In this document: piece by piece, positions 6,856-51,746 of the stretch
Layout: each line of letters starts with the position of its first letter
How positions within the stretch are numbered: the first letter of the stretch is position 1
Source of the DNA: Thermoplasmata archaeon
Lineage (GTDB): Archaea; Thermoplasmatota; Thermoplasmata; Lutacidiplasmatales; UBA184
Direction of reading: 5' to 3'
Length of the DNA: 64,000 nt
Assembly: GCA_049584655.1 (NCBI GenBank)
Contig: JBAUYF010000027.1
Coordinates: 139,836-203,835, forward strand
Notes under the pieces: model-generated
The model's database searches: none
Seen by the model: only the letters and a program-made list of their open reading frames with translations
Told to the model about the DNA's origin: nothing
Translations under genes and position numbers: made by a program

Positions 6856-6983
6856 ACGGGGGAATTACCCGAGTCCTCGGCCCTGCGGGCTCGCCCAATG
6901 GAGGGGTCACGGCCGCCCCCTCCGTTGTTACGATTTTAGAAAACAGCATAACTATTTGTAGCCCGTCCGTGGTTCGCCGCTGA

Positions 6984-8135
6984 ATGAGTTCTTCACTACC
7001 GCCGACCTCGGGACCGGGCGATCTCAACCTCACCCGGCGCGAGAAGTTCCAGATGACGGTGCTCTACGCCGCGATTCTGCTCGCGACGGTCGGAGCGTTC
7101 GCGCTCGCCTTCTTTTACCTCCCTCACAGCCTCCCGAAAGGGGACGGGGTGGCAGGCGGCGGATTGCTCTTCACGGGGCTGGCGATCACCGCCTACATTC
7201 TCGGAATTCGTCACGGATTTGATGCCGACCATATCGCCGCGATCGACAACACAACGCGTAAACTCCTGAATGACGGCGAGCGCCCGCTCACCGTGGGGAC
7301 CTGGTTCTCTCTCGGTCACTCCACGATCGTGTCGGGGATGGTCGTGGGGCTGGTCGTGGCCGCCGAGTTCATTCAGCGCCAGTACAACACCTTCGCGTCC
7401 GTCGGCGCCGTTCTGGGAACGCTCATCTCCGGCGCCTTTCTGTTTATCATCGGTCTCGTCAACGTGATTATTGTTGTCGAGGTCTACCGGATCTTCAAAG
7501 GACTCAAGAACCGAGAGCTCGACCAGAAGGCGCTCGACGCGCAGATGGAAAAGCGCGGGTTCCTCTATCGCTACTTTGGCAAGCTGTTCAAGATCATCAA
7601 GAAGCCGTGGCAGATCTATCCGATTGGGGTCCTCTTCGGCCTCGGCTTCGACACTGCGACGGAGGTGTTGCTGATCGGGATCGCGGTCGTGGTGGCGACC
7701 TCGGGCTCGATCCCGCTGTGGGCTGTCCTGATCTTGCCGCTCTTGTTCACCTGTGGGATGGTGCTCTCCGACACCACGGACGGATTTGCCATGCGCTACG
7801 CGTATGGGTGGGCGTTCCTCAAACCGATCCGCAAGATCTACTACAACCTTACCTTGACGATCATCTCCGTCCTCGTCGCGTTCGTCATCGGGGGCGTAGA
7901 GCTGTTGCAGGTCACGTCGTCCGAGCTCGGCTGGGGCGGCCCGTTCTGGAACTGGCTCAACGGCCTCGATTTTGAAACGCTGGGCTTCGGGATCGTGATC
8001 CTATTCCTTGGGGCGTGGCTGTTGGCGATGGCGATCTACCGGATCAAGCGCTACGAGGACGTCGGATTCGGTCCCGAGCCCACGCCACCGAACCCGCCCG
8101 GACCGGGGGCCGGCCGACTCCCGTCCGAATCGTGA
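6984..8135 (+). CDS. NiCoT family nickel/cobalt high-affinity transporter (HoxN/NixA type)
   Basis: Signature HGFDADHIAAIDNTTRK and LGHSTIVS, with eight predicted TM helices. Confidence 0.85.
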   Translation: MSSSLPPTSGPGDLNLTRREKFQMTVLYAAILLATVGAFALAFFYLPHSLPKGDGVAGGGLLFTGLAITAYILGIRHGFDADHIAAIDNTTRKLLNDGERPLTVGTWFSLGHSTIVSGMVVGLVVAAEFIQRQYNTFASVGAVLGTLISGAFLFIIGLVNVIIVVEVYRIFKGLKNRELDQKALDAQMEKRGFLYRYFGKLFKIIKKPWQIYPIGVLFGLGFDTATEVLLIGIAVVVATSGSIPLWAVLILPLLFTCGMVLSDTTDGFAMRYAYGWAFLKPIRKIYYNLTLTIISVLVAFVIGGVELLQVTSSELGWGGPFWNWLNGLDFETLGFGIVILFLGAWLLAMAIYRIKRYEDVGFGPEPTPPNPPGPGAGRLPSES

Positions 8136-8578
8136 CGCGACGCGTCGTGCGACTCGGGATCTCGATCGAACCCGAGTTGTTGAAGCATCTCGACCGGTGG
8201 GTGCAGGAACGGAACTCCTCCAGCCGGTCCGACGCCCTTCGTGCGATCATTCGGAAAGAGCTCACGCGTGAGGAACTAGGCGACCCGGAGGCGGACGCGG
8301 TTTCGTGCGTGACGCTTCTCTACCGGCATAACGCCCCGAACGTCTTACGACGCTTGGCCGCGGCGCAGCATCGGTGGGGGGACCACATTCGGTTCTCGGG
8401 TCACATCCACCTGCAAGGCAACTCGTGCATGGAAGTCATCGCGCTCGTCGGGAAACGACGCGAGATCGTGCAAGCCGCCGAAGACTTGCGAGGAGTGAAG
8501 GGAGTGGCCGTGGGGGACTATTCTCTCACCTCTCCCGCGGTCATCGGAGGGCGTACCGGTCATCGGCATCCTCACTAG
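8132..8578 (+). CDS. nikR: nickel-responsive transcriptional regulator NikR
   Basis: N-terminal ribbon-helix-helix (RLGISIEPELLKHLDRWV...SRSDALRAIIRKEL) and a C-terminal nickel-binding domain with HxxxH...HIHLQGNSCMEVIALVG. The GTG start overlaps the NiCoT stop (GTGA). Ends with TAG. Confidence 0.8.
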   Translation: MTRRVVRLGISIEPELLKHLDRWVQERNSSSRSDALRAIIRKELTREELGDPEADAVSCVTLLYRHNAPNVLRRLAAAQHRWGDHIRFSGHIHLQGNSCMEVIALVGKRREIVQAAEDLRGVKGVAVGDYSLTSPAVIGGRTGHRHPH

Positions 8579-18678: not shown

Positions 18679-20148
18679 CTATAATGCTCGCGCGAACTGG
18701 AGAGCCAGTTGCAGCAGGGTCGCCTCTCCGGGTTCCAGTCCTTGGGAATCCAGGTGGAGATGCGGCACAATCCCCGCGGAGCAGTTGGCGCTTGAATTCG
18801 TACTGAACCCCGTCACTGCGCCGGTAGTACCGTTCACGGTACCATTGACTTCCGTACCCAACCCCGTATTGCCGTTACAGGTGGTGTATTCTCCGATCCA
18901 AAAACCACCGTACGTGTAGTTGTAGTAGGTGCCCATGTACTCGTAGCTGTACGTGATGGTCGGGACCAAGAGCCAGTCCGCGCTCGCGCTTGAGTGGGCT
19001 GAGACGAAGGCCGACGCGTTCGTGTCGAAGTGGGTCGCAGCCTCGCTACTTCCGATGAAGGAGCCGGAAATCGTCGCGTTCTGGTAGACCGAGACGCAAC
19101 TCGGGCCGGAGATTTCTCCCAGGTTTGTTCCCACGCTATTGTAGACCAGGATGAGCTTAGCAGCGGGTGTAGGCGTAGCCGTGTACATGATGACAGCCCA
19201 GACCTCCATCGAGCCCCCACTGTAGGCGCCCGTGTAAGCCGGAATCGTGGGAGGCATAGTCCCTCCGGTAAGCGGACAGGTCGCGTTCGTTAGGTTTTGG
19301 TCCCACTCGCCGGGAGAAACTTGGGCGGTTACCGAGACGCCCACCGCAAATATCGGCGTATAGCCCGGCCCTGCGGTAGTGGCCGCAACCGGCTCCGCCT
19401 GGGAATACGTCGCGGTTCCGGGAGATCCGCCGCCTCCAGAGGAGGTGAAGGTAATGGTCTCCAAAGCCGCGGCGCCTGCCACCGTAACCGAGCCTGAACT
19501 CGGCGCGGCAGTGTAGCCCGTAACGGAACCTACGGTGTACGAAAAGGTCCCGTTCTTCTCGGTGAACAGGATGGTCGTGGTGGTAGAAGCGAGATGGGAG
19601 CCGTTCAGAGTGACCGACCAGCTGGTACCTGCCGTGAGTCCCGTTTCTGTATAGGTCACCGTGTAGGTTCCGGCGGCCAATACCGAGAACGCGATCGACT
19701 GAGCTTTGGCAGCACCTGCGACGGTGATGCTGCCCGAAACTGGAAGGGGAACATATCCGGCAGCTGACGCTGAGAACGTATACGTGCCATTCTTCTCCGA
19801 AAATACAATGGCTGTACTGGTCGAGGATTGCGTAGACCCGCCCAATGTTACGGACCACGATACCCCAGCGAACACACCCGCGCCCCCGGAAGGAAGTCCG
19901 GATTCGGTGAAAGTAACGTTGTAGCTTGGACCGCTCGGTCCGCTCGAGCTCGATCCTCCGATCTTGAAACCGGGGATCAATCCCGAGAACCCGAGCCCTA
20001 TGATCACGATAATGACCACTACGACCGCTACAATCGCCCCCTTCGCTCCGCCGGACATACCCTTCCGCGGGGGCGGGGGAGACGATGGAGGAGGCTGACC
20101 CATCGGCGCCGGAGGCGGAGTGTCAGCCGGAGTACCCGTGGTTGCCAT
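18679..20148 (-). CDS. type-II (N-terminal signal-anchor) cell-surface glycoprotein with tandem beta-sandwich repeats
   Basis: Cytoplasmic poly-Pro N-terminus (PPPAPMGQPPPSSPPPP), a single TM (IVAVVVVIIVIIGLGF), then a Ser/Thr/Gly-rich ectodomain with two repeats of about 95 aa (…SWSVTL.GS…EKNGT…SGS[IV]TVAGAA…) and at least 12 N-glycosylation sequons. Confidence 0.6.
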   Translation of the reverse strand: MATTGTPADTPPPAPMGQPPPSSPPPPRKGMSGGAKGAIVAVVVVIIVIIGLGFSGLIPGFKIGGSSSSGPSGPSYNVTFTESGLPSGGAGVFAGVSWSVTLGGSTQSSTSTAIVFSEKNGTYTFSASAAGYVPLPVSGSITVAGAAKAQSIAFSVLAAGTYTVTYTETGLTAGTSWSVTLNGSHLASTTTTILFTEKNGTFSYTVGSVTGYTAAPSSGSVTVAGAAALETITFTSSGGGGSPGTATYSQAEPVAATTAGPGYTPIFAVGVSVTAQVSPGEWDQNLTNATCPLTGGTMPPTIPAYTGAYSGGSMEVWAVIMYTATPTPAAKLILVYNSVGTNLGEISGPSCVSVYQNATISGSFIGSSEAATHFDTNASAFVSAHSSASADWLLVPTITYSYEYMGTYYNYTYGGFWIGEYTTCNGNTGLGTEVNGTVNGTTGAVTGFSTNSSANCSAGIVPHLHLDSQGLEPGEATLLQLALQFARAL

Positions 20149-24123: not shown

Positions 24124-24849
24124 GTGGAGTACGCGGAGTGGGCTCCCTACTACGAGAAGATCCAGCAACAGTTTGGTTTTTCGTTCCCCCGCGAGGAAGC
24201 CGCCGCCGCCCGCCTCGTAGAGCTGCTCCCTGAGGCGGCGCGATCGCCGCCGTTGACGCGAATCGGACCTCGCCTCCGCGGACATGATGTAGTCGTCGTC
24301 GGGCTCGCACCCCGGGCCGGTCCCCCGCCGTTGTGGCGCCTGGCCTCCTCACGAGTGCCGCTCGCCGTTCTCGCCGCGGATGGAGCGGCTCGACCTTGCT
24401 TGGAAGCCGGGATCGTGCCGACCGCCATTGTAACGGATCTCGATGGACCGGTCGCTTCCGAGGTCTCGGCGAATGCGCGGGGGGCCTTGACGATCGTACA
24501 TGCTCACGGGGACAACATTCCCGCGCTCGAGGAGTGGGTCCCCCATTTCGCCGGTGAACTGGCCGGATCCTGGGCCGGTGCCCCGACTTCATCTCTCCTC
24601 GACGTGGGAGGTTTTACTGACGGGGATCGCGCCGCTTTCTTGGCGGCCCATCTCGGAGCTCGGCGCGTCTTGCTTTGGGGTTTCGACTTCAAGAATGTCG
24701 AAGAGATCGACGCCGTTACGGCCGATCTCAAACGGGCGAAGCTCGAGTGGGCCCGACAACTACTCGGAGTCTTGGCCGAGCGGTCCACGTCTCCCGTCCT
24801 GACGTGGGAGATCGATGGGACGCTGCATCCCTACGTCGGCGGCAAGTAA
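24124..24849 (+). CDS. mptE: 6-hydroxymethyl-7,8-dihydropterin pyrophosphokinase, archaeal MptE type (DUF115)
   Basis: Motifs IVTDLDG and HAHGDN. About 240 aa. GTG start. Confidence 0.65.
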
Positions 24850-26588
24850 GTCGTGTCGACCAGGTAGATTGCCTGCTGGGCATTTTCGTAGATGAGGACG
24901 AACGGAGCCGACGAAAGCCAGGCGATGGCCGCCGCGCTCAGGGGCGGTGCGGCCCCTGTGGGATTCAGCGCGACGCCGGCGTACATCACCGCATCCACGG
25001 CTACGTAGGAGATGGGGTGAATTACCGAGGGTGACGGCGAACCTCGAAGCTCTGCGGCCGCCGCTGTCCAGTTGGATCCGGTGAAGAGTGCCGGAGTAGA
25101 ATCCCACGTGGCGTTATTCCCATCGAACCCAAAGATCATCGAGCTCAACCGATGGTCAGAAGCGACCGCGGCGTGGGAGGGCACATCGATCCCGACCCAC
25201 ATCCAGAGCGCCGCATCTTGGACCGTGAGACCTTCTTGAAAACCACCGAAGTCATTCTGCGGAGGATAGACGATCGCGGCATTCGCACCCAGGAGCAGGA
25301 CCACCGCGACGGCGCCCACCACGATCGCACGACGTCCGTACCGATCTCCCGCACGAGCCACCAAACGACCGATCCCAACGGCAAACAGCAGTCCGAGAGG
25401 AAGGAAGAGGTATTCGACGTGCCGTGCCGCCGGCACGATCTGACTGAAGTTGGCGTTCGCGAGGTAGGTCGAAATGATCAGCCAGCCTAACGCGGAAAAT
25501 CCCAGCGCGCCGAGCCACGTTAACGAGAACGGCGCCATCCGAGCGGGGGTTAGTACGCGTCGACTACCCGCTCCGAAGAGGGAGAGAGCGAGGATCGGCG
25601 CGAAAAACAAGATCGCCGCAACCGTGGTCGTCTGCGATGTGCCGGGGATGGGGATGAAGACCACCGCGAGCACTCCCCCGAATACGGCAGCCGCGATGAG
25701 AACGGCGTCACGCAGCACACTCCGATCCGTCGGGAGGCGGACCCACGGTCGGTCGGTTCTTCCAGATTGACGGCGAAGGGCGATCAATCCCCCGACGAGG
25801 GCGATCAGCGCCAACCCCGCCGCTTCGAAGCCGGCGAATCCAACGCCCGTGCTGGTGTGGACACCGGGAATGATGACTTTCGATACGAAGGTCGTCGTGC
25901 CGTAGAACCAGAACAGGAACAAGCCTGTGAGGAATGCGGCCAAGAACGCCAGTTCGCGCCTCGGGTAACGGCGGCTCCATAGCCCAGGTCTCCAAAGCTC
26001 CAGCAGAAGAATGCCACCGAGGGCGCTCACGACGAAGAAGTAACTGGAAAGATGGTGCGTCACAATGAGCGCCGCGCTCGTAAGGGAGAGCGGCACGTAC
26101 CAACGAAGATCGCGACGGCCTTCGACGAGCATCCAGAGCGCGGCCACCACGAGAAAGTCCCCGATCGACAGAGGGGCCGGGTGCGCGATCGAGAAGAGGC
26201 GCGGCATCGCGAGGCTCGAAATCGCCGCCGCGAGCAACGCGATCGTGTCCTGCGGAAAGAGACGCCGGAAGAGTAGGAATAGGGGGAACACCGAGAGCAC
26301 GGCGACGACGGGAATGACCACGATGAGTGCGGTGAGCGCATCTGTCCCGTACGCGCCGGCGGCGGCGCCGGAGAGTAGCAAGATCCCCGGGAAGTCGGGA
26401 TAGGCCGCTCCCCATCCCAGGTATCCACCCCCATGGGGGAGGTGACCCGTTGACAACAGCACCGCGGTGAGTCGATAATATTCGCCGGTGTCAGAACCGA
26501 AGAGCGCGTAACTGAACAACGGTTGCAACGCGAGGAACACCAAGAAGAACGCGAGCGAAAAGAGCCAAAGGAAAGTGGCGCGGCTCAT
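24831..26588 (-). CDS. polytopic membrane protein (about 13 TM) with C-terminal extracytoplasmic domain; putative glycosyltransferase of the GT39/ArnT-like fold
   Basis: 585 aa, many TM helices, and an Asp-containing first loop. The C-terminal 130 aa are soluble. Function inferred from topology only. Confidence 0.4.
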   Translation of the reverse strand: MSRATFLWLFSLAFFLVFLALQPLFSYALFGSDTGEYYRLTAVLLSTGHLPHGGGYLGWGAAYPDFPGILLLSGAAAGAYGTDALTALIVVIPVVAVLSVFPLFLLFRRLFPQDTIALLAAAISSLAMPRLFSIAHPAPLSIGDFLVVAALWMLVEGRRDLRWYVPLSLTSAALIVTHHLSSYFFVVSALGGILLLELWRPGLWSRRYPRRELAFLAAFLTGLFLFWFYGTTTFVSKVIIPGVHTSTGVGFAGFEAAGLALIALVGGLIALRRQSGRTDRPWVRLPTDRSVLRDAVLIAAAVFGGVLAVVFIPIPGTSQTTTVAAILFFAPILALSLFGAGSRRVLTPARMAPFSLTWLGALGFSALGWLIISTYLANANFSQIVPAARHVEYLFLPLGLLFAVGIGRLVARAGDRYGRRAIVVGAVAVVLLLGANAAIVYPPQNDFGGFQEGLTVQDAALWMWVGIDVPSHAAVASDHRLSSMIFGFDGNNATWDSTPALFTGSNWTAAAAELRGSPSPSVIHPISYVAVDAVMYAGVALNPTGAAPPLSAAAIAWLSSAPFVLIYENAQQAIYLVDTTYLPPT

Positions 26589-28191: not shown

Positions 28192-29310
28192 TCAATTCTG
28201 CAGCTGATCGTCGATCCCCTTCGTCGCCGTCAACGGATGGGGCGCGTAAGCGGGCGCCGGTTTGGTGAGGTCGATTAGCGGAACCTTCCGGGCGATCTCG
28301 CGCGCCATGGCGGAGCAACTCGAGGGAGTGACGGGGCGTGCGGTGTACTGCGGGAGGGCGAGGTCGTAAGTCACGACCTTCTTCTCCGCGATCGTTTCCC
28401 ACACGGCACGCCAGATGCGTTCCGCCGCCTCGTTCTCGCCGAGGTGTCGGAACAAGAGTTCGAGGCAGAGAATCTCGGCGACCGGGTCCGCCTTGTCCTG
28501 TCCCGCGTATTTGGGCGCGGAGCCATGCACCGGTTCGAAAACGGCGATGGAATCGCCGTACAGCGCTCCGGGCGCCACGCCCAATCCCCCGGCGAGGCCC
28601 GCGCAGAGGTCGGACAGGATGTCGCCCATTAGGTTCGTCGTGACGATCACGTCGTATTCGGACGGCTTCTTGACGAGCTGCATGCACATGTTGTCGATCA
28701 GGCGCTCGTCACTCTCGATATCCGGATATTGGGGCGCCATCTCGCGAAAAGCGGTTTGGAAGAGCGCCCCGGTCGTCTTCATGATGTTCGCTTTGTGAAC
28801 CGCGGTGAGGTGGTGCCGGCGCTGTCGGCGCGCGAGCTCGAAGGCGAATCGGATGACCCGATCCGATGCCGCACGAGTCACGATCGCCACTGTCTCCGCC
28901 GCGCTATGATTTCGATCGACCCAATGTTCGACTCCCGAGTAAAGCCCCTCGGTGGTCTCGCGGACTACGATGAGATCGGTCTCGGGAAATCGAGTTCCCT
29001 CGCCCGCGATCGCCCGCGCGGGTCGGACCGATGCGAAGAGATCCAGGTCCACACGTAGTTGAACGTTGACGGAACGGAACCCTCCTCCGATCGGCGTGGT
29101 GATCGGCCCTTTAAGGGCCAGACGATTCTTTCGGACGGATTCGAGAACCGAAGCCGGCAGGGGCGTACCAGTCGCTTCGATCGCCTTTTCGCCGGCTTCG
29201 ACGACGTCCCATGTGATCGGAACTCCCGTCGCCTCCGCGACGACCCGAGCCGCCTGCGTGACTTCCGGTCCGATCCCGTCCCCCGGGATCAGCGTGACGC
29301 GATACGACAT
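28192..29310 (-). CDS. isocitrate/isopropylmalate dehydrogenase family protein, most like NAD-dependent isocitrate (or homoisocitrate) dehydrogenase
   Basis: LIPGDGIGPEV, GPITTPIGGGFRSVNVQLR, and the Mg/substrate motif DLCAGLAGGLG. 372 aa. Confidence 0.8.
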   Translation of the reverse strand: MSYRVTLIPGDGIGPEVTQAARVVAEATGVPITWDVVEAGEKAIEATGTPLPASVLESVRKNRLALKGPITTPIGGGFRSVNVQLRVDLDLFASVRPARAIAGEGTRFPETDLIVVRETTEGLYSGVEHWVDRNHSAAETVAIVTRAASDRVIRFAFELARRQRRHHLTAVHKANIMKTTGALFQTAFREMAPQYPDIESDERLIDNMCMQLVKKPSEYDVIVTTNLMGDILSDLCAGLAGGLGVAPGALYGDSIAVFEPVHGSAPKYAGQDKADPVAEILCLELLFRHLGENEAAERIWRAVWETIAEKKVVTYDLALPQYTARPVTPSSCSAMAREIARKVPLIDLTKPAPAYAPHPLTATKGIDDQLQN

Positions 29311-41954: not shown

Positions 41955-42376
41955 TTACGCCACCTCGTGATACAGAAGGCCTTCGTGACCACTCCTCAGC
42001 GCCCCGGCCGTCCTCCAATTGGACTCAAGAGAGCGCGAGGGATCCATGGTGACCCACAGCAGCACCAGGTCGTACTTAGCCCGGGCGTTACGGTCATTTC
42101 ACTTGGAGAGGTCGGAGTAGAGGCTGAGTTTGATTTCTCGAGTCGCTTTCGAGGAAACACGCGGATTCGGGAGGCAGAACTTCTGGTCGCAAGTCTCACG
42201 GCGCTCAGAAAATTGGACTGGCTACGGGTCGTGCGGGACTGACGGGCGACCCTGGCTTGCGGCGGGCGCTAGTACGAGCGCTAAAAGAACGAAACATCCT
42301 GCGCACGGCCGACTAGTACCGACCTCGAGGTACCGGCCCGCCACCTTTTCCTATTCGCGGTGTTGCCGCTGCCCAC

Positions 42377-44392
42377 ATGGGCGATTTGGATCTGACCCGC
42401 ATTAACACGCTTCGGTTCCTTGCAGTAGACTCGGTAGAAAAGGCGAAGTCCGGTCATCCGGGCCTGCCCCTTGGAGCGGCGCCCATGGCCTACGTTCTCT
42501 GGGACAGATTTCTGCGGCACAATCCAGCCGATCCGAAATGGCCGAATCGAGATCGGTTCGTTCTATCGGCAGGCCACGGGTCCGCCTTACTCTACGCGTT
42601 ACTCCACCTCACCGGCTACGATTTGCCCATCGAGGAGCTCAAGCAATTTCGCCAGTGGGGCAGTCGCACTCCCGGACATCCGGAGTACGGTCGAACCGCG
42701 GGAGTCGAGGCGACGACCGGTCCCTTGGGTCAGGGATTCGCGATGGGCGTAGGCATGGCAATCGCCGAACGCCACCTCGCGGCCACTTGGAACCGGGAGG
42801 GGATTCCGATCGTTGACCACTACACCTACGGCATTGTGTCGGATGGCGATCTGATGGAAGGAATTGCCTCCGAGGCGGCTTCGCTCGCGGGAACGCTCGG
42901 GCTGGGCAAGCTGATCTACCTCTACGACGACAATCACGTCACGCTCGAAGGTCCTACAGTCTGGGCGTTCACGGAGGATGTTCCGAAACGCTTCGAGGCG
43001 TATGGCTGGCAAGTGTTGCGAGTACCCGACGGGAACGACTTGAATGCGATCGATTCCGCGATCCGTCAAGCGCGTGAAGATATCACGCGACCTTCGCTGA
43101 TATGCGTGCGTACTCACCTCGGCTACGGTAGCCCGGTGCAAGACACCCGGGAAGCGCACGGTGAGCCCCTGGGTTCCGCGAACCTGAAAGCGACCAAGGA
43201 AAAGCTCGGATGGCCGTTGGAGCCGACGTTTCTCGTCCCTGAGGAGGTTCGAACGCATTTTCGCGCCGCGTTGAGCCGGGGCTCCCAGTGGCAGAAGGAG
43301 TGGGAAGCAGTTCGAGACCGACTCCGTTCAGAACAACCGGCGCAGGCGCATCAGATTGAAGCGCAGATCGCAGGCATGCTCCCGACAAATTGGGACTCTC
43401 AGTTGCCCACGTTTAAGCCGAGCGACGGGCCGATGGCCACGCGAGATGCCTCCCAGAAGGTTCTGGATGCGCTGGCACCCAAACTACTAGCGCTACTTGG
43501 GGGTGCCGCGGATTTGTCTCCCTCGACGAAGACGCTGCTGCCGGGCGCGCCCGACTACTCCCACTCCGACGCGCTGGGGCGTAACTTCCACTTTGGTGTT
43601 CGCGAACACGCCATGGTCGGCTGCCTCAACGGCATGGCCCTGCACGGTGGATTGATCCCATACGGCGGAACCTTCCTGGTCTTCTCGGATTACGCTCGAG
43701 GTGCTATTCGGCTTGCGGCGCTGCAACAGACCCATATTGTGTTGGTCTTCACGCACGACAGCATCGGAATGGGCGAGGACGGGCCGACTCACCAACCGAT
43801 CGAGCACTTGGCGAGTCTGCGGGCGATCCCGGGTCTCGCAGTGTTTCGACCCGCTGATGCGAATGAGAGTGTTGCCGCCTGGAAGGTGGCCGTCGAGCGC
43901 AACGGACCGTCCGCGCTGGTCTTCACTCGACAGAAGATTCCAATCATGGACCCCAACCGGTATCGGATTGCGGAGGGGACTCCGCGCGGCGGGTATGTGC
44001 TGTCCGAGGCCCCCTCCGGTCAGCCGGACCTGATCCTGATTGCCACGGGCTCGGAAGTTGCGCTCGTATTGGAGGTGCAGAGTCGCTTGGTCGAGAAAGG
44101 AATCCAAACGCGCGTCGTGTCGTTGCCGTGCTGGAAGCTTTTCGACGAACAGTCGACCGACTATCAAGAGTCAGTCCTGCCGAGGAACGTCCCCAAAGTT
44201 TCAGTCGAGGCCGGGAGTACGCTGGGTTGGTCTCGCTACGTGGGCTCGACTGGAGCATCCATCGGGATCGATCACTTCGGCGCTTCCGCACCGGGACCGA
44301 TCCTCCTAAGAGAATTCGGGTTCACCGCAGATCACGTGATTGAGGTGGTCGAGCGGTCGCTCGGCCAGCGTATTCAGGTGAGCGCACCATGA
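42377..44392 (+). CDS. tkt: transketolase, full-length single-chain (671 aa)
   Basis: TPP-binding N-terminus ([27 protein letters not shown]), GDGDLMEG, and pyrimidine-binding and C-terminal domains in one ORF. Confidence 0.9.
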
Positions 44393-47145
44393 CGAGTCTC
44401 ACCGCCCTGCTGGAACGTGGTCAGTCACCCTGGCTCGACTACATTCGTCGAAGCCTCCTGACCAGCGGCGAACTGAAACGGATGGTCGAACAGGATGGGA
44501 TCACGGGGGTCACGATCAACCCCACCATCTTCGAGAAAGCCATCGCCGGAAGTCACGATTACGACGCATCGCTCCAGGAGATCCTGGGGGGCGAACCCCA
44601 CTTGGCCCCCGCGGAACTCTATGAACGGCTCGCGGTGGAAGACGTGCGTTTAGCCGCCGATGTGCTCCGCCCTGTCTTCGATCGCACGGGAGGAAAGGAC
44701 GGATTTGTCAGTCTAGAGGTCGCCCCCGGACTTGCCCATGATACCGCCGGTACGATCTCGGAGGCTCGACGCCTCTGGGGGGAGGTCAACCGGCCGAATC
44801 TTCTCATTAAAGTCCCGGGGACGAAAGAAGGAGTTCCGGCGATCGAGGCGCTTCTCGCCGAGGGCATCAATATCAACATCACGCTTCTGTTCTCGCTTTC
44901 TCAGTACGAAGCGGTCGCGCAAGCCTATCTGCGCGGATTAGCGCGCGTTCACGACCCCGCGCAACTTGCCTCCGTCGCTTCCGTCTTTGTAAGTCGCATC
45001 GATACCGCGGTCGATCGATCGCTTGATGCATCGACTTCCCCCGATGCTTCCGCATTGAAGGGAAAAGTCGCGATCGCCAACTCGCGTGTGATCTACGCGC
45101 GGTTTCAGGAGATCTTCCACGGGACTTCATTCGCGCCATGGCTCGCGCGCGGCGCACGCCCGCAGCGGGTCCTTTGGGCGAGCACGAGCACCAAGGACCC
45201 CCATTTCCGAGATACCCTCTACGTAGAGGAGCTGATCGGGCCCGAGACCGTCGATACGATCCCACCGGCAACTATCACGGCGTTCGAAGACCACGGAGTC
45301 GTACGCGGCGACACGCTCGGAGAAGGACTGTCCGAGGCGCAGGAGTTGCTCCGACGAGCTGCGCGCGCGGGGATCAACCTCGAAAAGATCACCGACGATC
45401 TACAAACCGAGGGTGTCGCGCTGTTCTCGGACTCCTACGCACTCCTCCTCCGGTCGCTTGCGACGAAGAAGGAGACTATCCTAGTCGGTCGGGTCGACCC
45501 GCAGTCCTGGTCGCTGGGGAGCAGTGGGGACCGCGTCGCGGCGCGGCTGCAGAGTTGGCAAGGCAATCGAGTTGCGGAGCGATTCTGGAAGCGCGACGCC
45601 ACATTGTGGCCGGCCGCGCCCCCGACGGACGTGGCGGAGCGAATGGGCTGGCTCCACCTTCCAGAGCTAATGCAGGAACAAGTGGCGCGACTCGAGAATG
45701 TAGCGAACCAAATCCGATCCGAAGGGTTTCGACACGTCGTCGTTCTTGGGATGGGTGGATCGAGCCTTGCCCCGGACGTTCTACGGGGGCTCTTCGGGCA
45801 CCGGCCGGGGTATCCGGAGTTGCTCGTGCTCGATAGCACACACCCCGACGCGATCGCGTCCCTGCGCCGCATCATCGACCCCGCGCATACGTTCTTCCTC
45901 GTCTCCAGCAAATCAGGAACGACCACCGAACCCCTTTCCTTCTATCGTTACTTTTGGGAGCAGTTGCGGGTGGCCGGTGTAGCGCCGGGTCGCGGCTTCG
46001 CGGCGATCACAGATCCCGGCACACCCCTGGAGAAGCTCGCCCGGGAGCAAGGATTCCGCGAGGTGTTCCTAGCGCTCCCGTCCGTCGGGGGGCGGTATTC
46101 CGCCCTCACCATGTTCGGTCTCGTCCCAGCGGCGCTGATCGGCATCGACGTCCGTGCCTTGCTGGACCGCGCCTGGACGATGGCGGAAGCCTGCGCCCCT
46201 TCACTTCCGGTCAGTGAGAATCCGGGACTCAGCCTCGGGGCGGTTCTGGGGGAACTTGGGAACTCGGGTCGGGATAAGTTGACGTTCTTCGCGGCCGCGG
46301 GATTTGCCCCATTTCCGATCTGGGTCGAACAATTAGTGGCGGAAAGTACCGGCAAGATCGATAAAGGAATCGTCCCCGTCGTCGACGAACCCCCGATTTC
46401 CCCCGAGCAGTATGGCTCAGACCGACTCTTCGTCGAGATCCAGGTCGGAGCGACACCGGATGCCGCGCTCGCCGCCCACACGTCTCGACTTGAGTCTGCG
46501 GGCTTCCCGGTCATTCGGATTCGCGTCGCCCACTCGCTCGCGGTCGGAGAGGAGTTCTTCCGGTGGGAGGTCGCGGTGGCCAGTTCGGGAATGATCCTGG
46601 GTATCGACCCCTATGACCAGCCCGATGTCGAGCTCGCGAAGGAACTTGCGCGAAAGGCGATGGCCCAGCCCGGCGGGGTCTCCGGGGCCTCCGGTGTCGT
46701 AACGGTTCCGAGCGCCGATCGCGCCGCACTGGTCGCGGCATTCAACCGGTGGCTGGCTTCCTGTCGGCCCGGGGACTACGTCGGGATCCAGGCGTATCTT
46801 GCGCCCAACGCATCGACGTTGACGACGCTAGAAGCGCTGCGCCAAGGCCTTCTGGAGCGGCTTCACGTCGCCACCACTTTCGGCTACGGACCGCGGTTTC
46901 TCCACTCAACAGGACAGCTTCACAAGGGTGGTCCGAACACCGGTCTATTTCTCCAACTGGTCGACACTCCGACCCAGGACATCCCGGTTCCCGGAGAGAA
47001 CTTCACCTTTGGCGAGCTGATCCGGTCCCAATCGCTGGGCGATTACCAAGCCCTCGAGCAGAAGCATCGTCGGGTTCTTCGGGTGGACTTGGGTGCCGAT
47101 GTCGACGGCGGCCTCCAGATCTTGTTGGGAGCGCTCCGTGGCTGA
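44389..47145 (+). CDS. bifunctional transaldolase / glucose-6-phosphate isomerase (918 aa)
   Basis: The N-terminal 370 aa are transaldolase (SPWLDYIRR...[11 protein letters not shown]...LIKVPGT). The C-terminal 540 aa are PGI ([11 protein letters not shown], ...SKSGTTTEP). Start overlaps the tkt stop (ATGA). Confidence 0.85.
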
Positions 47146-47752
47146 GGTCTCCTTACTCCTCTGGGACGTCGGAGGTGTGTTGCTCTCGAACGGCTGGGAC
47201 CACGCCGCCCGAGCCGCCGCTGCTGCCCATTTCAAACTGGACCCGACCGAATTGGAACGGCGCCACCAACTCGTGGACGCCGCGTTCGAGACCGGGCGAC
47301 TCGACGTGCCCGGCTATCTGGAGTCCACCGTCTTCTACACGCCCCGGTCGTTCTCCCGAGCAGACTACGTCCAATTCATGCGAGACCGGTCGCGTCGTAA
47401 CGCCGCCGCGCTAACCGCGGCCCGGGCCCTCCGGGGGGAAGGTAGGTACGTGATGGCCGCGCTGAACAACGAATCCCGGGATCTTAACGCATATCGAATC
47501 CAGACGTTTGGCTTGAAGGAGGTCTTCCACGTCTTCTTCAGCTCGTGCTACACGGGCTTGCGAAAGCCGGAGCCCGCCGCCTTCCAATACGCGCTAACGC
47601 TCACTCAACGTACGCCCGAAGAGACCCTCTTTCTCGACGATCGGCCCGAGAATATTGCTGCGGCGGCTCAATTGGGTCTCCATACCTTGCAGGTTCGAGA
47701 CCCCGAGCACCTCAGGGAAGAGTTAGCACTCGCCGGCGTTGCGTTGGGGTAG
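47138..47752 (+). CDS. HAD-superfamily hydrolase (subfamily IA-like)
   Basis: Motif I LWDVGGVL and a C-terminal FLDDRPENIAAA. The in-frame GTG at 47138 overlaps the tal-pgi stop. The ORF-track start at 47093 is upstream, inside the tal-pgi gene. Confidence 0.6.
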   Translation: MAEVSLLLWDVGGVLLSNGWDHAARAAAAAHFKLDPTELERRHQLVDAAFETGRLDVPGYLESTVFYTPRSFSRADYVQFMRDRSRRNAAALTAARALRGEGRYVMAALNNESRDLNAYRIQTFGLKEVFHVFFSSCYTGLRKPEPAAFQYALTLTQRTPEETLFLDDRPENIAAAAQLGLHTLQVRDPEHLREELALAGVALG

Positions 47753-47762
47753 GAGAAGAACG

Positions 47763-48671
47763 ATGGAACTGGGAATGGTTGGGCTAGGGAAGATGGGAGC
47801 GAACATGACCGAGCGACTTATCAAAGGAGGCCACCGAGTGGTCGGATTCGCTCGGACGAAGGCGACCGTGGATGCCGTAGTGGCGCAAGGAGCGGTGGGC
47901 GCCTATTCTCTGGCCGAACTGGTCCAGAAGCTGGCGACGCCTCGGATCGTCTGGTTGATGATTCCGTCCGGAGCGCCGGTCGACCAAACGCTCGAGGAAC
48001 TTCACGCACTGCTCGCACCAGGTGACCTGATCGTAGACGGGGGGAACTCCTACTACCGCGACACGCTGCGGAGGGCCGCGCTCGTGAAGAGCTGGGGCTT
48101 CCGGTATGTCGATGTGGGCACCAGTGGCGGCATCTGGGGGCTCGCCGAGGGCTATTCGATGATGGTCGGCGGAGAGAAGACGGATGTCGACCGGATCCGG
48201 CTCGTCCTGGAGACCTTGGCCCCCGGTCCGAAAAAGGGTTGGGGTCACATGGGCGTTGTCGGCTCCGGACACTTCGTGAAGATGGTCCACAACGGGATCG
48301 AGTACGGCATGATGCAAGCCTACGCCGAAGGCTTCGCCGTCATTCAGGGCAAGACGGATTTCGCGCTGGACCTGCATCAAATCGCTCAGGTGTGGCGCTA
48401 CGGGAGCGTGATCCGATCCTGGCTCCTCGAGTTAACCGAATCGGCCCTGGCGGAGAATCCAACGCTCGCCGGGATCGAGCCGTGGGTCGCCGACTCTGGG
48501 GAAGGTCGGTGGACCGTCACCGAGGCGATGGACCTCAACATTCCAGCTCCCGTGATCACGCTGGCGCTCCAGCAGCGTTTGCGATCACGCGAACAAGATC
48601 CGTTCACCGAGCGTCTGCTCGCGATGATGCGCAACAAGTTCGGCGGACACGAAGTCAAGCGGGAGAGCTAG
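47763..48671 (+). CDS. gnd: 6-phosphogluconate dehydrogenase, decarboxylating (short-chain Gnd/YqeC type)
   Basis: Rossmann N-terminus MELGMVGLGKMGANMTERLIKGGH, then GGNSYY. About 300 aa, TAG stop. Confidence 0.8.
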   Translation: MELGMVGLGKMGANMTERLIKGGHRVVGFARTKATVDAVVAQGAVGAYSLAELVQKLATPRIVWLMIPSGAPVDQTLEELHALLAPGDLIVDGGNSYYRDTLRRAALVKSWGFRYVDVGTSGGIWGLAEGYSMMVGGEKTDVDRIRLVLETLAPGPKKGWGHMGVVGSGHFVKMVHNGIEYGMMQAYAEGFAVIQGKTDFALDLHQIAQVWRYGSVIRSWLLELTESALAENPTLAGIEPWVADSGEGRWTVTEAMDLNIPAPVITLALQQRLRSREQDPFTERLLAMMRNKFGGHEVKRES

Positions 48672-48673
48672 GC

Positions 48674-50131
48674 ATGGAAACCGCCGGGGCCGCGAAGCAC
48701 CTCATTGCGGTGTTCGGGGCGACCGGAGATCTGTTTCAACGCAAATTGCTCCCCGTGCTCTACCGCCTCGCGGCGCGGGGCGAATTCCCGGCAGGAAGTA
48801 TCGTGCTCGGGATCGCGCGACGTCCACTCGACGACGAATCGTTCCGGACGCTGGCGGTGCAGTCGCTGAAGGCCGAGAAATCGGGAACGGACGAGGAGAT
48901 CCAGAAGTTCTGCGCTACGACGCTCTTCTATCACACGCTGGACGACGAGTCGCCGACGGGGTACGACGACCTGCGGAAACGGATCGAGACTACGGAGCAG
49001 TCGCACGGACTCCCCGGCAACCGGATCCTTTACCTCGCGCTTCCGCTCGAAGCGTTTACGCCGACGCTCGAGGGGATCGGCCACGCCGGGTTCAACACCG
49101 GTCCGGGCTGGACGCGCGTGGTCGTGGAGAAGCCGTTCGGACGCGACCTCGCTTCCGCCCAAGCGCTCAATCAACTGTTGCTAAAATATTTCCAGGAGCC
49201 GCAGATCTTTCGGATCGACCACTACTTGGGCAAGGAGACGGTCCAGAATCTCTTGATCTTCCGGTTCGCAAACATGTTCGTGGAATCGGCCTGGAACCGC
49301 GCCCAAGTGGAGAAGGTAGAGATCACTGTCGCCGAACAGCTCGGAGTGGAAGGGCGTGCGCAGTACTACGATCGGTCGGGGGCACTTCGGGATATGGTAC
49401 AGAACCACGTCACACAACTCCTCACGTTGGTGGCGATGGAGCCTCCGGCCACGAAGGATGAGGAAGCGATCCGCAACGAGAAGGTCAAGGTGCTCGAGAG
49501 CGTGGTCCCGCTGCGGCCGAAGGACGTCGTTCGAGGGCAATACGCCGCGGGCACCGTGGACGGTCAGTTGGTCAAGGCCTATCGCGAGGAGCCGGGCGTT
49601 TCACCTACCTCGGAAACGGAGACGTTCATCGCCCTCCGCTTGAAGGTCGATAACTGGCGTTGGCAGGGCGTTCCGTTCTTTGTTCGAACGGGGAAACGAT
49701 TGCCCGCGAAGTCCACCCGAGTGGTGCTGACGTTCAAGGCCCCGCCCGTGTCGTTCTTTCAGGCGGAAGGCGAGTACGACGCGAACCCGGATCGAATTTC
49801 GATCCTCATCCAGCCGGACGAAGGCTTCGAGCTCGCCTTCGAGATCAAGGTGCCAGGACGAGAAATTCGCGTGCAGACGAATCGCATGAAATTCCACTAC
49901 GCCGATGTCTTCGGAGAACTCCCGGACGGCTACGAGACCCTGCTGATCGACGTCATGCTCGGGGATCCCACGCTCTTCGTTCGCGCGGACGAGGTCGAGG
50001 AATCCTGGCGTCTGTACGCCCCGCTGTTGGCGCATCCCCCTCCGATCGTCTTCTATCCGGCGAACACGTGGGGGCCGCCCGAGGCGCAAGCGCTCATTCA
50101 GCAGTGGGGACACATGTGGAGCCCGTCGTAG
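48674..50131 (+). CDS. zwf: glucose-6-phosphate 1-dehydrogenase
   Basis: VFGATGDLFQRKLLP, EKPFGRDL, RIDHYLGKE. The start is chosen at METAGAAKH. The ORF-track start at 48239 lies inside gnd. Confidence 0.9.
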   Translation: METAGAAKHLIAVFGATGDLFQRKLLPVLYRLAARGEFPAGSIVLGIARRPLDDESFRTLAVQSLKAEKSGTDEEIQKFCATTLFYHTLDDESPTGYDDLRKRIETTEQSHGLPGNRILYLALPLEAFTPTLEGIGHAGFNTGPGWTRVVVEKPFGRDLASAQALNQLLLKYFQEPQIFRIDHYLGKETVQNLLIFRFANMFVESAWNRAQVEKVEITVAEQLGVEGRAQYYDRSGALRDMVQNHVTQLLTLVAMEPPATKDEEAIRNEKVKVLESVVPLRPKDVVRGQYAAGTVDGQLVKAYREEPGVSPTSETETFIALRLKVDNWRWQGVPFFVRTGKRLPAKSTRVVLTFKAPPVSFFQAEGEYDANPDRISILIQPDEGFELAFEIKVPGREIRVQTNRMKFHYADVFGELPDGYETLLIDVMLGDPTLFVRADEVEESWRLYAPLLAHPPPIVFYPANTWGPPEAQALIQQWGHMWSPS

Positions 50132-50925
50132 CGCGCTTCGTGCACATTTACCCCACACTGGCCTCGGCCAGCTCTGCGTTGGCGCGACATCTGAGCCAGG
50201 CAGCGCGACGATCCGTTCGCGCGCGCGGCGTGTTCTCGTGGGTTGTGGCGGGGGGCCATACCCCGGAAGGCCTGTACGGCTTGCTCGCGAGCGAATACCG
50301 TGTACGCTTCCCCTGGAAGGAGACCGAATTGTTCTTCGGCGATGAACGGTGTGTCGGTCCCCGCGCTCCGTTCAGCAACTACCGCATGGTTAGGAAATCG
50401 CTCATTTCCCTCGTGCCGCTGCGGCGCCGAAACGTACATCGGATGCCCGGCGAAGTCCGCCCCACCTCGGCGGCAGCGCGTGTCTATGCGCGCGAGATCG
50501 AGTCGACTCGACCGCATGACCGTGCTTCACCACGATTCGACGTCGTTCTCCTTGGGATTGGCCCCGATGGTCACACAGCCTCCCTCTTCCCCCGCGCGCC
50601 GGCTTTGCGCGAGCGACGACGCACCGTGGTCCCGGTTCTGCGAGCCGGGCAGCCCCCGTTGGTGCACCGGCTCACGCTCACACTTCCCGCGCTCGCCTCC
50701 TCGAGAGAAGTGTGTTTCCTCATCTCCGGGAGTGACAAGGCAGAGGTAGTGGGGGAGATCTTCCGGTCGTTTCCGCAGGGGTCGACCGCCCTGCCCGCGA
50801 GCCTCGTTAGGAGTCAGGGGCCTACACACTGGTACCTCGATCGTGCGGCCGCCGCCGAGCTACCGTCTTCGATCGCCCGCGCCGCCGCTTCGCGACCGGC
50901 CCAGAACCATCGAACGAGTTCGTGA
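50116..50925 (+). CDS. pgl: 6-phosphogluconolactonase
   Basis: LFFGDERCVGP and GIGPDGHTASLFP motifs. GTG start overlapping the zwf stop. The ORF-track start at 49660 is over-extended. Confidence 0.75.
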   Translation: MEPVVARFVHIYPTLASASSALARHLSQAARRSVRARGVFSWVVAGGHTPEGLYGLLASEYRVRFPWKETELFFGDERCVGPRAPFSNYRMVRKSLISLVPLRRRNVHRMPGEVRPTSAAARVYAREIESTRPHDRASPRFDVVLLGIGPDGHTASLFPRAPALRERRRTVVPVLRAGQPPLVHRLTLTLPALASSREVCFLISGSDKAEVVGEIFRSFPQGSTALPASLVRSQGPTHWYLDRAAAAELPSSIARAAASRPAQNHRTSS

Positions 50926-51630
50926 CTACGACAGATTCTTCGCGCGGATCCTTGCGGGGCTCCAGAGGCGGACCCCTCCGACGATCGCCCTGCTATTGTC
51001 GCCACGTCGAGCGCCGGGGGGCAGAACTTTGAGTTTGCGAACGTTGCCCCCGCCCAAGACGACGTAGTCAGGTTCGAGAGCATCCGAGAGTCGCTTGACG
51101 ACCTCGAAGACTTCCTTGGCCCATTTCTTGCGGCCGAGGCGACGCCGGCCCTTTTCCCCCACGTAATCTTCGAACGACTTCCCTTTCTTGTACGGGAGGT
51201 GGGCGAGTTCCATCGGCTCGATCTCCCCATCGATGATCATCGTGGTCCCCAAGCCGGTCCCGAGCCCGAGGAACAGCATCTTCCCGCCTTCGTAGCTCCC
51301 CAGCGCCTGCATCGCGGCATCATTGATGACTTGGGTCGGGCGGCGGAACGCCTTTTCAAAATCGAAACCGACCCAGCCTTTCCCCAGATTGGCTGGGTCG
51401 TGGATGATCCGGCCCCGAAGCACGGGCCCCGGGTACCCTACCGAAACCGCGTCGAACCGCTCCCCCTTGAGCCACTTCCTGATTTTTCGCAACATCGTCT
51501 GGGGATCCATCGTGGGGCCTGACACGATTCGAAAGGATCGCACGGGGGAGGTGAGAGATGCCCGCACATGGGTTCCTCCAATGTCGAGGATTAGGATCCG
51601 TCGGCGGGGCTTCGGAGTCTTTCGTTTCAT
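50926..51630 (-). CDS. ROK-family polyphosphate/ATP glucokinase
   Basis: ILILDIGGTHVR, INDAAMQALG, FLGLGTGLGTTMI. The start is chosen at MKRKTPKP. Convergent with the PPP operon. Confidence 0.75.
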   Translation of the reverse strand: MKRKTPKPRRRILILDIGGTHVRASLTSPVRSFRIVSGPTMDPQTMLRKIRKWLKGERFDAVSVGYPGPVLRGRIIHDPANLGKGWVGFDFEKAFRRPTQVINDAAMQALGSYEGGKMLFLGLGTGLGTTMIIDGEIEPMELAHLPYKKGKSFEDYVGEKGRRRLGRKKWAKEVFEVVKRLSDALEPDYVVLGGGNVRKLKVLPPGARRGDNSRAIVGGVRLWSPARIRAKNLS

Positions 51631-51746
51631 TGGACTCGAGGCGTCGAGGGACACTGGGGATATAACTCCCCGAGACGAGACCTGCCCGGGAGACATCCTG
51701 CCCCGAGAGTCAGGCATGACCTCACGGTCGCAATCCAACTTCCGCG

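Follow-up and report, generated by a model that had tools for sequence, protein, structure and literature searches.

A complete bacterial-type pentose-phosphate operon in a Thermoplasmata archaeon, very probably acquired as a block by an ancestor of its lineage

How does an archaeon come to carry a complete pentose-phosphate operon of bacterial type, and what would it use it for? The question is raised by a 64,000-nt stretch of DNA assigned to a Thermoplasmata archaeon (contig JBAUYF010000027.1 of assembly GCA_049584655.1), which is referred to as the window and whose positions are used as coordinates throughout. Six genes on its plus strand (42377-50925), in the order tkt, tal-pgi, a HAD hydrolase gene, gnd, zwf and pgl, overlap or almost touch each other, and a ROK-family kinase gene converges on them. 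Archaea typically supply ribulose-5-phosphate and ribose-5-phosphate by the reverse ribulose monophosphate (RuMP) route with Hps-Phi and a split transketolase. That route serves the same purpose, but its enzymes are unrelated and it yields no NADPH, and the transketolase of the window is fused rather than split. In a 2024 survey transketolase was split in 441 archaeal assemblies and fused only in a few DPANN and Thorarchaeota, and the oxidative phase of the pathway "is not widespread among archaea" (PMC11237513). The oxidative enzymes were also lacking in the one Angelarchaeales (Thermoplasmata) genome that was analysed (PMC9038741), which makes that order an improbable host of the window. A preliminary description of the window had presented the locus as an oddity for an archaeon, which these data justify in general, and had taken it for a horizontally acquired, NADPH-generating module. 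Our analysis indicates that the operon encodes a complete bacterial-type pentose-phosphate pathway that likely supplies NADPH and pentoses, and that it was very probably acquired as a block from bacteria by an ancestor of a Thermoplasmata lineage (Lutacidiplasmatales/UBA184 or close relatives) and was inherited vertically as a unit thereafter. The direction of the transfer and its nature as a single block are what we infer from the comparisons described below.

Five of the six operon proteins score above the curated cut-offs of NCBIfam equivalog or subfamily models. The transketolase Tkt matches TIGR00232 with 879 bits (cut-off 682), contains the Transketolase_N, Transket_pyr and Transketolase_C domains in one chain and shows the thiamine-diphosphate motif GDG...DDN in its translation. 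It is 62-87% identical to the proteins of archaeal relatives and 49-59% identical to those of bacterial loci with a full-length match. The second protein aligns over residues 1-916 with NF007080 (1171 bits, cut-off 712) and joins a transaldolase (PF00923) and a glucose-6-phosphate isomerase (PF00342) in one open reading frame (ORF). The transaldolase half has the lysine motif LIKVPGT and the isomerase half has the motifs SKSGTTTE and GGRYS. Gnd, with an NAD_binding_2 domain and a truncated 6PGD C-terminal domain, scores 445 bits with NF007161 (cut-off 271) and 373 bits with TIGR00872 (cut-off 297), and its best solved relatives (6VPB, 4E21, 6XEQ and 8IHE) are all short 6-phosphogluconate dehydrogenases (6PGDHs). 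Zwf matches TIGR00871 with 563 bits (cut-off 400.6), as well as PF00479 (G6PD_N, 190 bits) and PF02781 (G6PD_C, 367 bits), and its motifs GATGDL, EKPFG and RIDHYLGKE are invariant or nearly so in an alignment of 11 archaeal sequences. Pgl is recognized by TIGR01198 (202 bits, cut-off 124) and PF01182, and scores only 29 bits with the nagB model (cut-off 237), which indicates that it is not a NagB-type deaminase. The HAD protein belongs to the HAD-IA group, with PF00702 and TIGR01509 above their cut-offs. Among solved structures the closest is 3CNH (179 bits), a 'hydrolase family protein' that is itself uncharacterised, and the substrate of the HAD protein is presumed to be a sugar phosphate. 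These profile scores and domains, together with the gene coordinates (Table 1), confirm six tightly packed pentose-phosphate genes on one strand followed by the seventh, convergent gene, and they confirm the architectures that had been called bacterial, namely the unsplit Tkt, the Tal-Pgi fusion and the canonical Zwf and Pgl.

The operon lies within archaeal DNA. Upstream of it the window encodes GatD/GatE, Spt5 (NGN-KOW), FtsZ, Hel308 and RqcH, downstream of it the glycerol-1-phosphate (G1P) dehydrogenase EgsA and an archaeal-type LeuRS, and an MptE-like kinase is also among the archaeal genes of the window. The earlier assignment to an archaeal genome is well founded, as archaeal marker genes flank the operon on both sides. 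The GC content is flat, at about 0.62, over the whole window. An identical Zwf (P0001, 100%) and an identical Tal-Pgi have been deposited as 'MAG: Thermoplasmata archaeon' (MAG, metagenome-assembled genome) on a 269-kb contig. An independent JGI contig of 699 kb (L001; the loci fetched for comparison carry such handles) agrees with the window in the operon and in its neighbours, a pirin gene upstream and the ROK, Kef, G1P dehydrogenase and LeuRS genes downstream.

The operon is widespread within one archaeal clade. More than 120 Zwf clusters (90% identity level) are 67-92% identical to the window protein, and those that are named all come from Thermoplasmata MAGs. For Tal-Pgi about 100 clusters were found at 62-100% identity, and the named ones above about 62% are all 'Thermoplasmata archaeon'. 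The order tkt-talpgi-HAD-gnd-zwf-pgl was present in every clade context that was fetched (L001, L003/L004, L006, L089, L090 and L092). One of these, L089, is contig JAKIWQ010000006 of MAG SubAcS13-64, which carries the six-gene operon and the ROK gene and whose Zwf is 70% identical to that of the window. Sheridan et al. (2022; PMC9287336) list SubAcS13-64 in their Supplementary Data 2 as Lutacidiplasmatales, GTDB o__UBA184. The presence of this MAG in the Zwf clade, the record label of the identical protein and the high GC content are indirect indications that the window organism may belong to this order too. The window organism, a soil-type Thermoplasmata archaeon which together with L001 forms its own branch and has 62% GC, may belong to a different genus or family from the published MAGs. 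Among more distant members of the clade the flanks differ. In L003 (14688-17084), L004 (7973-10369) and L092 (15480-17888) the ROK-like gene is replaced by a convergent gene for a GH15 glucoamylase/trehalase-like protein just past pgl, which ties the operon in these loci to the degradation of glucan or trehalose. Upstream of the operon in L092 lies a NiFe hydrogenase with its maturation cluster.

Related genes were found on two other archaeal contigs. L002 (JGI contig Ga0452214_012892, 1-10227, 44% GC) is archaeal, encodes Sec61-beta and has a related operon that lacks the HAD gene, in the order ROK-YjeF_N-tkt-talpgi-gnd-zwf-pgl, next to which lies a convergent rpe. In L010 (8176-11449; 42% GC), a locus of a MAG whose record is titled Nitrososphaeria archaeon, zwf comes after a pgi that is not fused. 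Its Pgi is 47% identical to the Pgi half of the fusion protein, and its Zwf belongs to the same subfamily as that of the window (49%). None of the genes flanking L010 that were scanned with Pfam is diagnostic of a domain of life, so that its archaeal status is taken from the record title.

The same enzyme families and much of the gene order are shared with bacteria. When the representatives of clusters at 50% identity were searched exhaustively, the Zwf closest to the window protein outside the clade was that of the archaeal L002 (52%). The other nearest representatives (45-50%) are, where named, from Bacteroidota/Rhodothermales, Gemmatimonadota, Edaphobacter, Actinomycetota and cyanobacteria. 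A genome scan gave, among the matches listed, one Thermoplasmata genome and bacterial Zwf proteins at 51-56% identity, the latter from a 'delta proteobacterium' MAG, Salinibacter/Salinivenus, an Acidobacteriota MAG, Bryobacterales, Bacteroidetes and Gemmatimonadales. Below the Thermoplasmata, the next named Tal-Pgi matches are from Acidobacteria, Methylomirabilales and Bryobacterales (57-60%). To compare gene order, the seven window proteins were mapped onto all fetched loci. The Acidobacteriota locus L009 has the order talpgi (50-58%)-HAD (44%)-gnd (62%)-zwf (54%)-pgl (42%). The order is tkt-talpgi-gnd-zwf in Salinivenus L025, tkt-talpgi-gnd-zwf-pgl in L036, L062 and L076, and tkt-HAD-zwf-pgl in L078. 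The HAD gene, which has the same operon position in the archaeal relatives and in L009, is thus also shared with L078 (46%). The nearest bacterial versions among those sampled are from Acidobacteriota and Rhodothermia. The tkt-tal/pgi-gnd-zwf-pgl operons of Acidobacteriota, Rhodothermia (Salinibacter, Salinivenus) and Bacteroidota resemble that of the window in enzyme families, fused Tal-Pgi, unsplit Tkt, short Gnd and gene order. They differ from it in that the window has an archaeal host and tighter gene overlaps, and the closest bacterial proteins are just 42-62% identical to those of the window. In L009 (MFD00008) tal-pgi (5637-8336) is broken into four tblastn segments in different frames, most likely by indel errors of a long-read assembly rather than as a pseudogene.

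Phylogenies had been proposed as a check in the preliminary description, and neighbour-joining trees (Kimura distances, 100-200 bootstraps) placed the archaeal sequences inside bacterial diversity for five genes. The Thermoplasmata sequences are monophyletic in the trees of Zwf (100%), Gnd (100%), Tal-Pgi (100%), Tkt (97%) and Pgl (100%), and are nested among bacteria each time. The Zwf subfamily, supported by 99%, consists of the Thermoplasmata clade, the pair L002 and L010 (86%) and nine bacteria which, by their record titles, represent about seven phylum-level groups. Within the archaeal clade the internal order, in which the window and L001 form a pair, followed by L006 and then by L003/L004, is the same in the Zwf, Gnd, Tkt and HAD trees, as would be expected if the genes were inherited as a unit. 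The Pgl tree deviates at a node with 41% support, and the Tal-Pgi tree does not contain L006. The Tal-Pgi of L002 groups with those of the bacterial loci L005 and L009 (98%), apart from the Thermoplasmata, which indicates separate acquisitions by different archaea. The trees support an archaeal clade inside bacterial diversity and point to no particular donor. The preliminary description had treated a deep archaeal clade shared across the lineage as an observation that would speak against transfer; the clade found here is indeed lineage-wide and archaeal, yet it is itself nested in bacteria.

Composition and divergence bear on the age of the operon. GC at third codon positions (GC3) is 0.70-0.79 in the operon genes and 0.67-0.83 in the flanking genes, and the pooled relative synonymous codon usage of operon and flanks correlates with r = 0.98. 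The operon proteins are 70-94% identical to those of L001, and the flanking native proteins 72-94% (LeuRS 87%, EgsA 94% and Kef 85%). No integrase or transposase was found among the flanking ORFs scanned. The matched composition and the equal divergence from L001 indicate that the operon has long shared the evolution of the genome, in agreement with the published reconciliation of Sheridan et al. A comparison of GC3 and codon usage had been suggested as a check; operon and flanks did not differ, the composition of the operon being fully ameliorated.

With regard to function, the encoded enzymes likely form a complete or cyclic pentose-phosphate pathway yielding NADPH and pentoses. A hexose would be converted to glucose-6-phosphate, possibly through the ROK kinase, and Zwf, Pgl and Gnd would oxidise glucose-6-phosphate, giving ribulose-5-phosphate and CO2 with reduction of two nicotinamide cofactors. 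Tkt and Tal would convert pentose phosphates to fructose-6-phosphate and glyceraldehyde-3-phosphate, and the fused Pgi would return fructose-6-phosphate to glucose-6-phosphate, so that the pathway could run as a cycle. Judged by the Arg-containing cofactor loops, NADP+ is the likely acceptor for both dehydrogenases. At the end of strand beta-2 the Gnd of the window reads G-F-A-R-T, and in archaeal Gnd (all five Thermoplasmata and L002) Ala-Arg is followed by Thr, His, Ala or Ser. In the NADP-specific yeast Gnd1 (2P4Q) the corresponding residues are N-R-T. Asp is found there in the NAD-dependent Gnd2 (8IHE), in 4E21, 6VPB and 6XEQ, and in the proteins of Acidobacteriota L009, Salinibacter and a Bacteroidetes MAG. 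The corresponding Zwf loop is 'GIAR-R', and its Arg is kept in the five Thermoplasmata and L002; the loop is 'AVE' in L009, and the Nitrososphaeria locus L010 has His. In characterised NADP-using glucose-6-phosphate dehydrogenases (G6PDHs) the loop Arg binds the 2'-phosphate. The two archaeal loops, Ala-Arg in Gnd and Arg in Zwf, thus stand against Asp and Val in L009, which may hint that specificity shifted from NAD to NADP once the operon had been transferred. The part of the preliminary description that called the module NADPH-generating would find support in these NADP-type loop residues, from which such a role is solely deduced.

Could the unusual origin of the operon be only apparent, or be of another kind? 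An assembly or binning artefact, in which a bacterial fragment was joined to archaeal DNA and the operon would not truly be archaeal-borne, could draw on the bacterial type of all six proteins and on the metagenome assembly that is the source of the window. Archaeal markers lie both upstream and downstream in the same window, though, operon and flanks are arranged identically on the independent contig L001, six or more additional archaeal contigs, obtained in different projects, carry the operon, and there is no break in GC, GC3 or codon usage, which leaves this explanation virtually no chance. The chimeric bacterial/archaeal mis-assembly that had been named earlier as a possible objection is excluded by a total of at least seven independent archaeal contigs. 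The bacterial gene architectures, together with flanks that vary among distant clade members, would also be consistent with a recent, genome-specific acquisition. We consider this highly improbable, as neither a compositional signal nor mobility genes in the scanned flanking ORFs were seen, operon and native flanks have diverged equally from L001, archaeal monophyly and congruent internal branching are found in the three best-supported genes (Zwf, Gnd and Tkt), and the closest bacterial proteins are so distant. The earlier claim of horizontal acquisition therefore stands as far as transfer from bacteria is concerned, in view of the nested trees and the shared gene order, and has to be given up where it implied an event that was recent or specific to this genome. 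A third explanation is that the pathway is ancestral, having been present early in Archaea or Thermoplasmatota and lost nearly everywhere, with any transfers going from archaea to bacteria. The archaeal clade is large, old and cohesive, L002 and L010 add two more archaeal contigs with related genes, and the sister group of the clade is poorly supported, all of which would fit. Against this, at 50% identity the Zwf family falls into over 21,000 representative clusters, of which the top named ones are bacterial and from many phyla, and the grouping of the L002 Tal-Pgi with bacteria speaks for separate acquisitions. In addition, the Angelarchaeales genome lacks the oxidative enzymes, the oxidative phase is uncommon in archaea, and a published reconciliation, in its supplementary text, places the gain of zwf and gnd only at the Lutacidiplasmatales ancestor (PMC9287336). 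We therefore regard an ancestral pathway as very unlikely.

With the same origin, the main role of the operon could be glucan or hexose catabolism or the supply or use of pentoses, with dehydrogenases that are NAD+-linked or dual-specific. Such a role is suggested by the GH15 gene directly past the operon in L003/L004 and L092, by the NAD+ dependence of some short-chain 6PGDHs such as 8IHE, by the NAD-type Asp in the nearest bacterial Gnd and the Zwf of L009 without the Arg, and by the TIGR00872 family, which is named NAD+-dependent in NCBIfam. The replacement of this Asp by Ala-Arg in the Gnd of five Thermoplasmata and L002, which resembles the N-R-T of NADP enzymes, argues against it, as do the conservation of the Zwf Arg in all five Thermoplasmata and the name of the best-scoring Gnd model, NF007161, which is NADP-dependent. 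A catabolic role is compatible with an NADPH role, the two not being mutually exclusive, and as an account of the main function we consider it possible but rather unlikely. The acquisition by an ancestor and the NADPH/pentose role, which we prefer, have several points against them. Rpe and Rpi are not encoded in the window, so that both must be encoded elsewhere, and the cofactor preference would be read from two loop motifs. None of the sampled bacteria has all six genes in the identical order, and L009 is without an adjacent tkt. The trees are neighbour-joining trees with a taxon sampling biased to query-similar sequences, and bootstrap support for a sister pairing with Acidobacteriota L009 is as low as 41% for Zwf and 14% for Gnd. 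Given this low sister-group support, donor phylum and transfer direction are deduced mainly from the overwhelmingly bacterial make-up of the families. Finally, the window has a GC content of 62%, compared to 66-69% in the described Lutacidiplasmatales.

The gene boundaries given in Table 1 were refined by inspection of the junctions and by gene calls on identical and related contigs. The longer program-listed ORFs for the HAD gene, gnd, zwf and pgl were rejected as upstream extensions, based on the junctions and the gene calls of relatives. From tkt to pgl the successive spacings are -4, -8, +10, +2 and -16 nt, and the overlap of zwf and pgl is called likewise on identical contigs. Purine-rich, Shine-Dalgarno-like stretches (GGGAG, GGAGA, GGGAGAG and GGGGA) precede four of the five internal starts, those of the HAD gene, gnd, zwf and pgl. 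The tight spacing and these stretches suggest that the operon may be expressed as one translationally coupled transcript. Many bacterial loci have an opcA-sized gap between zwf and pgl, unlike the window, in which there is none. Bacterial operons of the Zwf subfamily of the window are like it in this respect, as pgl, where present, follows zwf without such a gap. Upstream of tkt, the AT-rich motif CTTTTCCTATTCG is the sole conserved block in 120 nt between the window and its 87%-identical relative L001. It is a candidate promoter element, whose distance to the ATG would suit a TATA box of an archaeal gene if the leader were short or absent; it was not found upstream of tkt in L089 and L090.

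Table 1. Features of the pentose-phosphate operon and its immediate surroundings in the 64,000-nt window.
Feature	Position	Strand	Remarks
Candidate promoter element, AT-rich 13-nt motif CTTTTCCTATTCG	42345..42357	+	32 to 20 nt before the tkt ATG
tkt, single-chain bacterial-type transketolase, 671 aa	42377..44392	+	TIGR00232
tal-pgi, fused transaldolase/glucose-6-phosphate isomerase, 918 aa	44389..47145	+	NF007080; ATGA overlap with the tkt stop
HAD-IA hydrolase, 204 aa	47138..47752	+	PF00702, TIGR01509; GTG start, 8-nt overlap with tal-pgi
gnd, short-chain 6-phosphogluconate dehydrogenase, 302 aa	47763..48671	+	NF007161; ATG start, 10-nt gap
zwf, glucose-6-phosphate dehydrogenase, 485 aa	48674..50131	+	TIGR00871; ATG start, 2-nt gap
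pgl, 6-phosphogluconolactonase, 269 aa	50116..50925	+	TIGR01198; GTG start, 16-nt overlap with zwf
Convergent short ROK-family kinase, about 242 aa	50926..51654, ORF to 51738, start uncertain	-	Pfam ROK

The convergent gene was described earlier as encoding a ROK glucokinase. Its orientation and its membership of the ROK family hold; glucokinase is not established. The protein passes the Pfam ROK model weakly (32 bits, cut-off 22.9) and stays far below the cut-offs of the glucokinase model TIGR00744 (24 against 260 bits) and the polyphosphate glucokinase model NF045942 (66.5 against 250 bits). Its best solved relative is 3LM2, a 'putative kinase' (262 bits), and the polyphosphate/ATP-glucomannokinase 1WOQ scores 45 bits. 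By its sequence it is a predicted short ROK-family kinase of an uncharacterised subfamily. The gene is kept beside the operon in L001, L006 and L089, and a related gene is found inside a pentose-phosphate cluster of Blastocatellia (L049). From this gene context, a hexose kinase making glucose-6-phosphate is a plausible but unproven role. The stops of pgl and of the ROK-like gene touch at 50925/50926 with zero intergenic bases and no T-run. As the stops are directly adjacent, convergent transcripts would need to terminate within the opposite gene.

Further features of the window concern its host. A thiamine pyrophosphate (TPP) riboswitch (RF00059) is located at 45-150 on the plus strand (62.5 bits, gathering score 54.3), ahead of ORFs at 179-3928 for the binding protein, the fused permease and the ATPase of a thiamine-type ABC transporter. 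Among Archaea such riboswitches are rare; they are known from Thermoplasmata, and one in the window would thus agree with the assigned host. The window also encodes an aconitase, AcnA (4099-6855), an isocitrate/isopropylmalate-type dehydrogenase (28192-29310) and a HoxN/NicT nickel transporter (6984-8135). The aconitase and the dehydrogenase fit an aerobic heterotroph with a tricarboxylic acid cycle, as described for Lutacidiplasmatales. Two ORFs on the minus strand, 18679-20148 (489 aa) and 24831-26588 (585 aa), have no NCBIfam match, and the first is also without a Pfam match.

Another archaeal route from glucose-6-phosphate to ribulose-5-phosphate with a short-chain 6-phosphogluconate dehydrogenase is that of the haloarchaea. 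Pickl and Schoenheit reportedly described in 2015 a modified oxidative pentose-phosphate pathway of Haloferax volcanii, which consists of Azf and a short Gnd. The haloarchaeal G6PDH is Azf, an unrelated enzyme of the short-chain-dehydrogenase type that uses NAD+. The window differs from this route in having a canonical Zwf (PF00479 and PF02781), its own Pgl and an operon that includes the whole non-oxidative branch. Azf is the subject of a publication (PMC8506132).

Part of the gene set has been reported for the order itself. In their supplementary text, Sheridan et al. (2022; PMC9287336) used reconciliation to place the gain of zwf and gnd at the ancestor that all Lutacidiplasmatales (TMEG, GTDB UBA184) last had in common, and hxlB (phi) was retained at this ancestor in the published reconstruction. 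The 'key pathways' sheet of the supplement contains only RuMP and non-oxidative genes. The gene set of that study is the same as that of the window, SubAcS13-64 being one of its MAGs with the operon and the ROK gene. In the supplement zwf and gnd appear alone, and the parts of the paper that were searched do not mention the operon, the fused tal-pgi, the unsplit tkt, the HAD gene, pgl, the bacterial synteny or a donor. A full-text literature search found no paper on the operon, on its bacterial synteny or on the fused and unsplit architectures in this order, nor on a Tal-Pgi fusion in archaea. An ancient, lineage-wide interdomain operon transfer is thus real and essentially already known; little is new because the enzymes are canonical, public MAGs contain the proteins with their annotation and it is published that the lineage gained zwf and gnd. 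What is added is incremental: the operon-level view, the gene order common with Acidobacteriota, two independent cases, one in a low-GC archaeon and one in a Nitrososphaeria MAG, and a testable hint of a cofactor change after transfer.

The furthest-reaching idea is that an aerobic archaeal order of soils owes the whole of its hexose-to-pentose and NADPH metabolism to the transfer of one operon from bacteria, after which both dehydrogenases were re-tuned from an NAD+-type loop, as in L009, to an NADP+-type loop, perhaps displacing the RuMP route. We put it forward tentatively and hold it to be doubtful in this full form; if true, nature would here have transplanted a pathway and then re-engineered its cofactor use. 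The acquisition of the operon itself fits the published picture in which Lutacidiplasmatales turned into aerobic sugar-using heterotrophs via large gene gains. It offers a clean case of a whole central-metabolic pathway that crossed from Bacteria to an archaeal order, in which it is now native-looking and stable.

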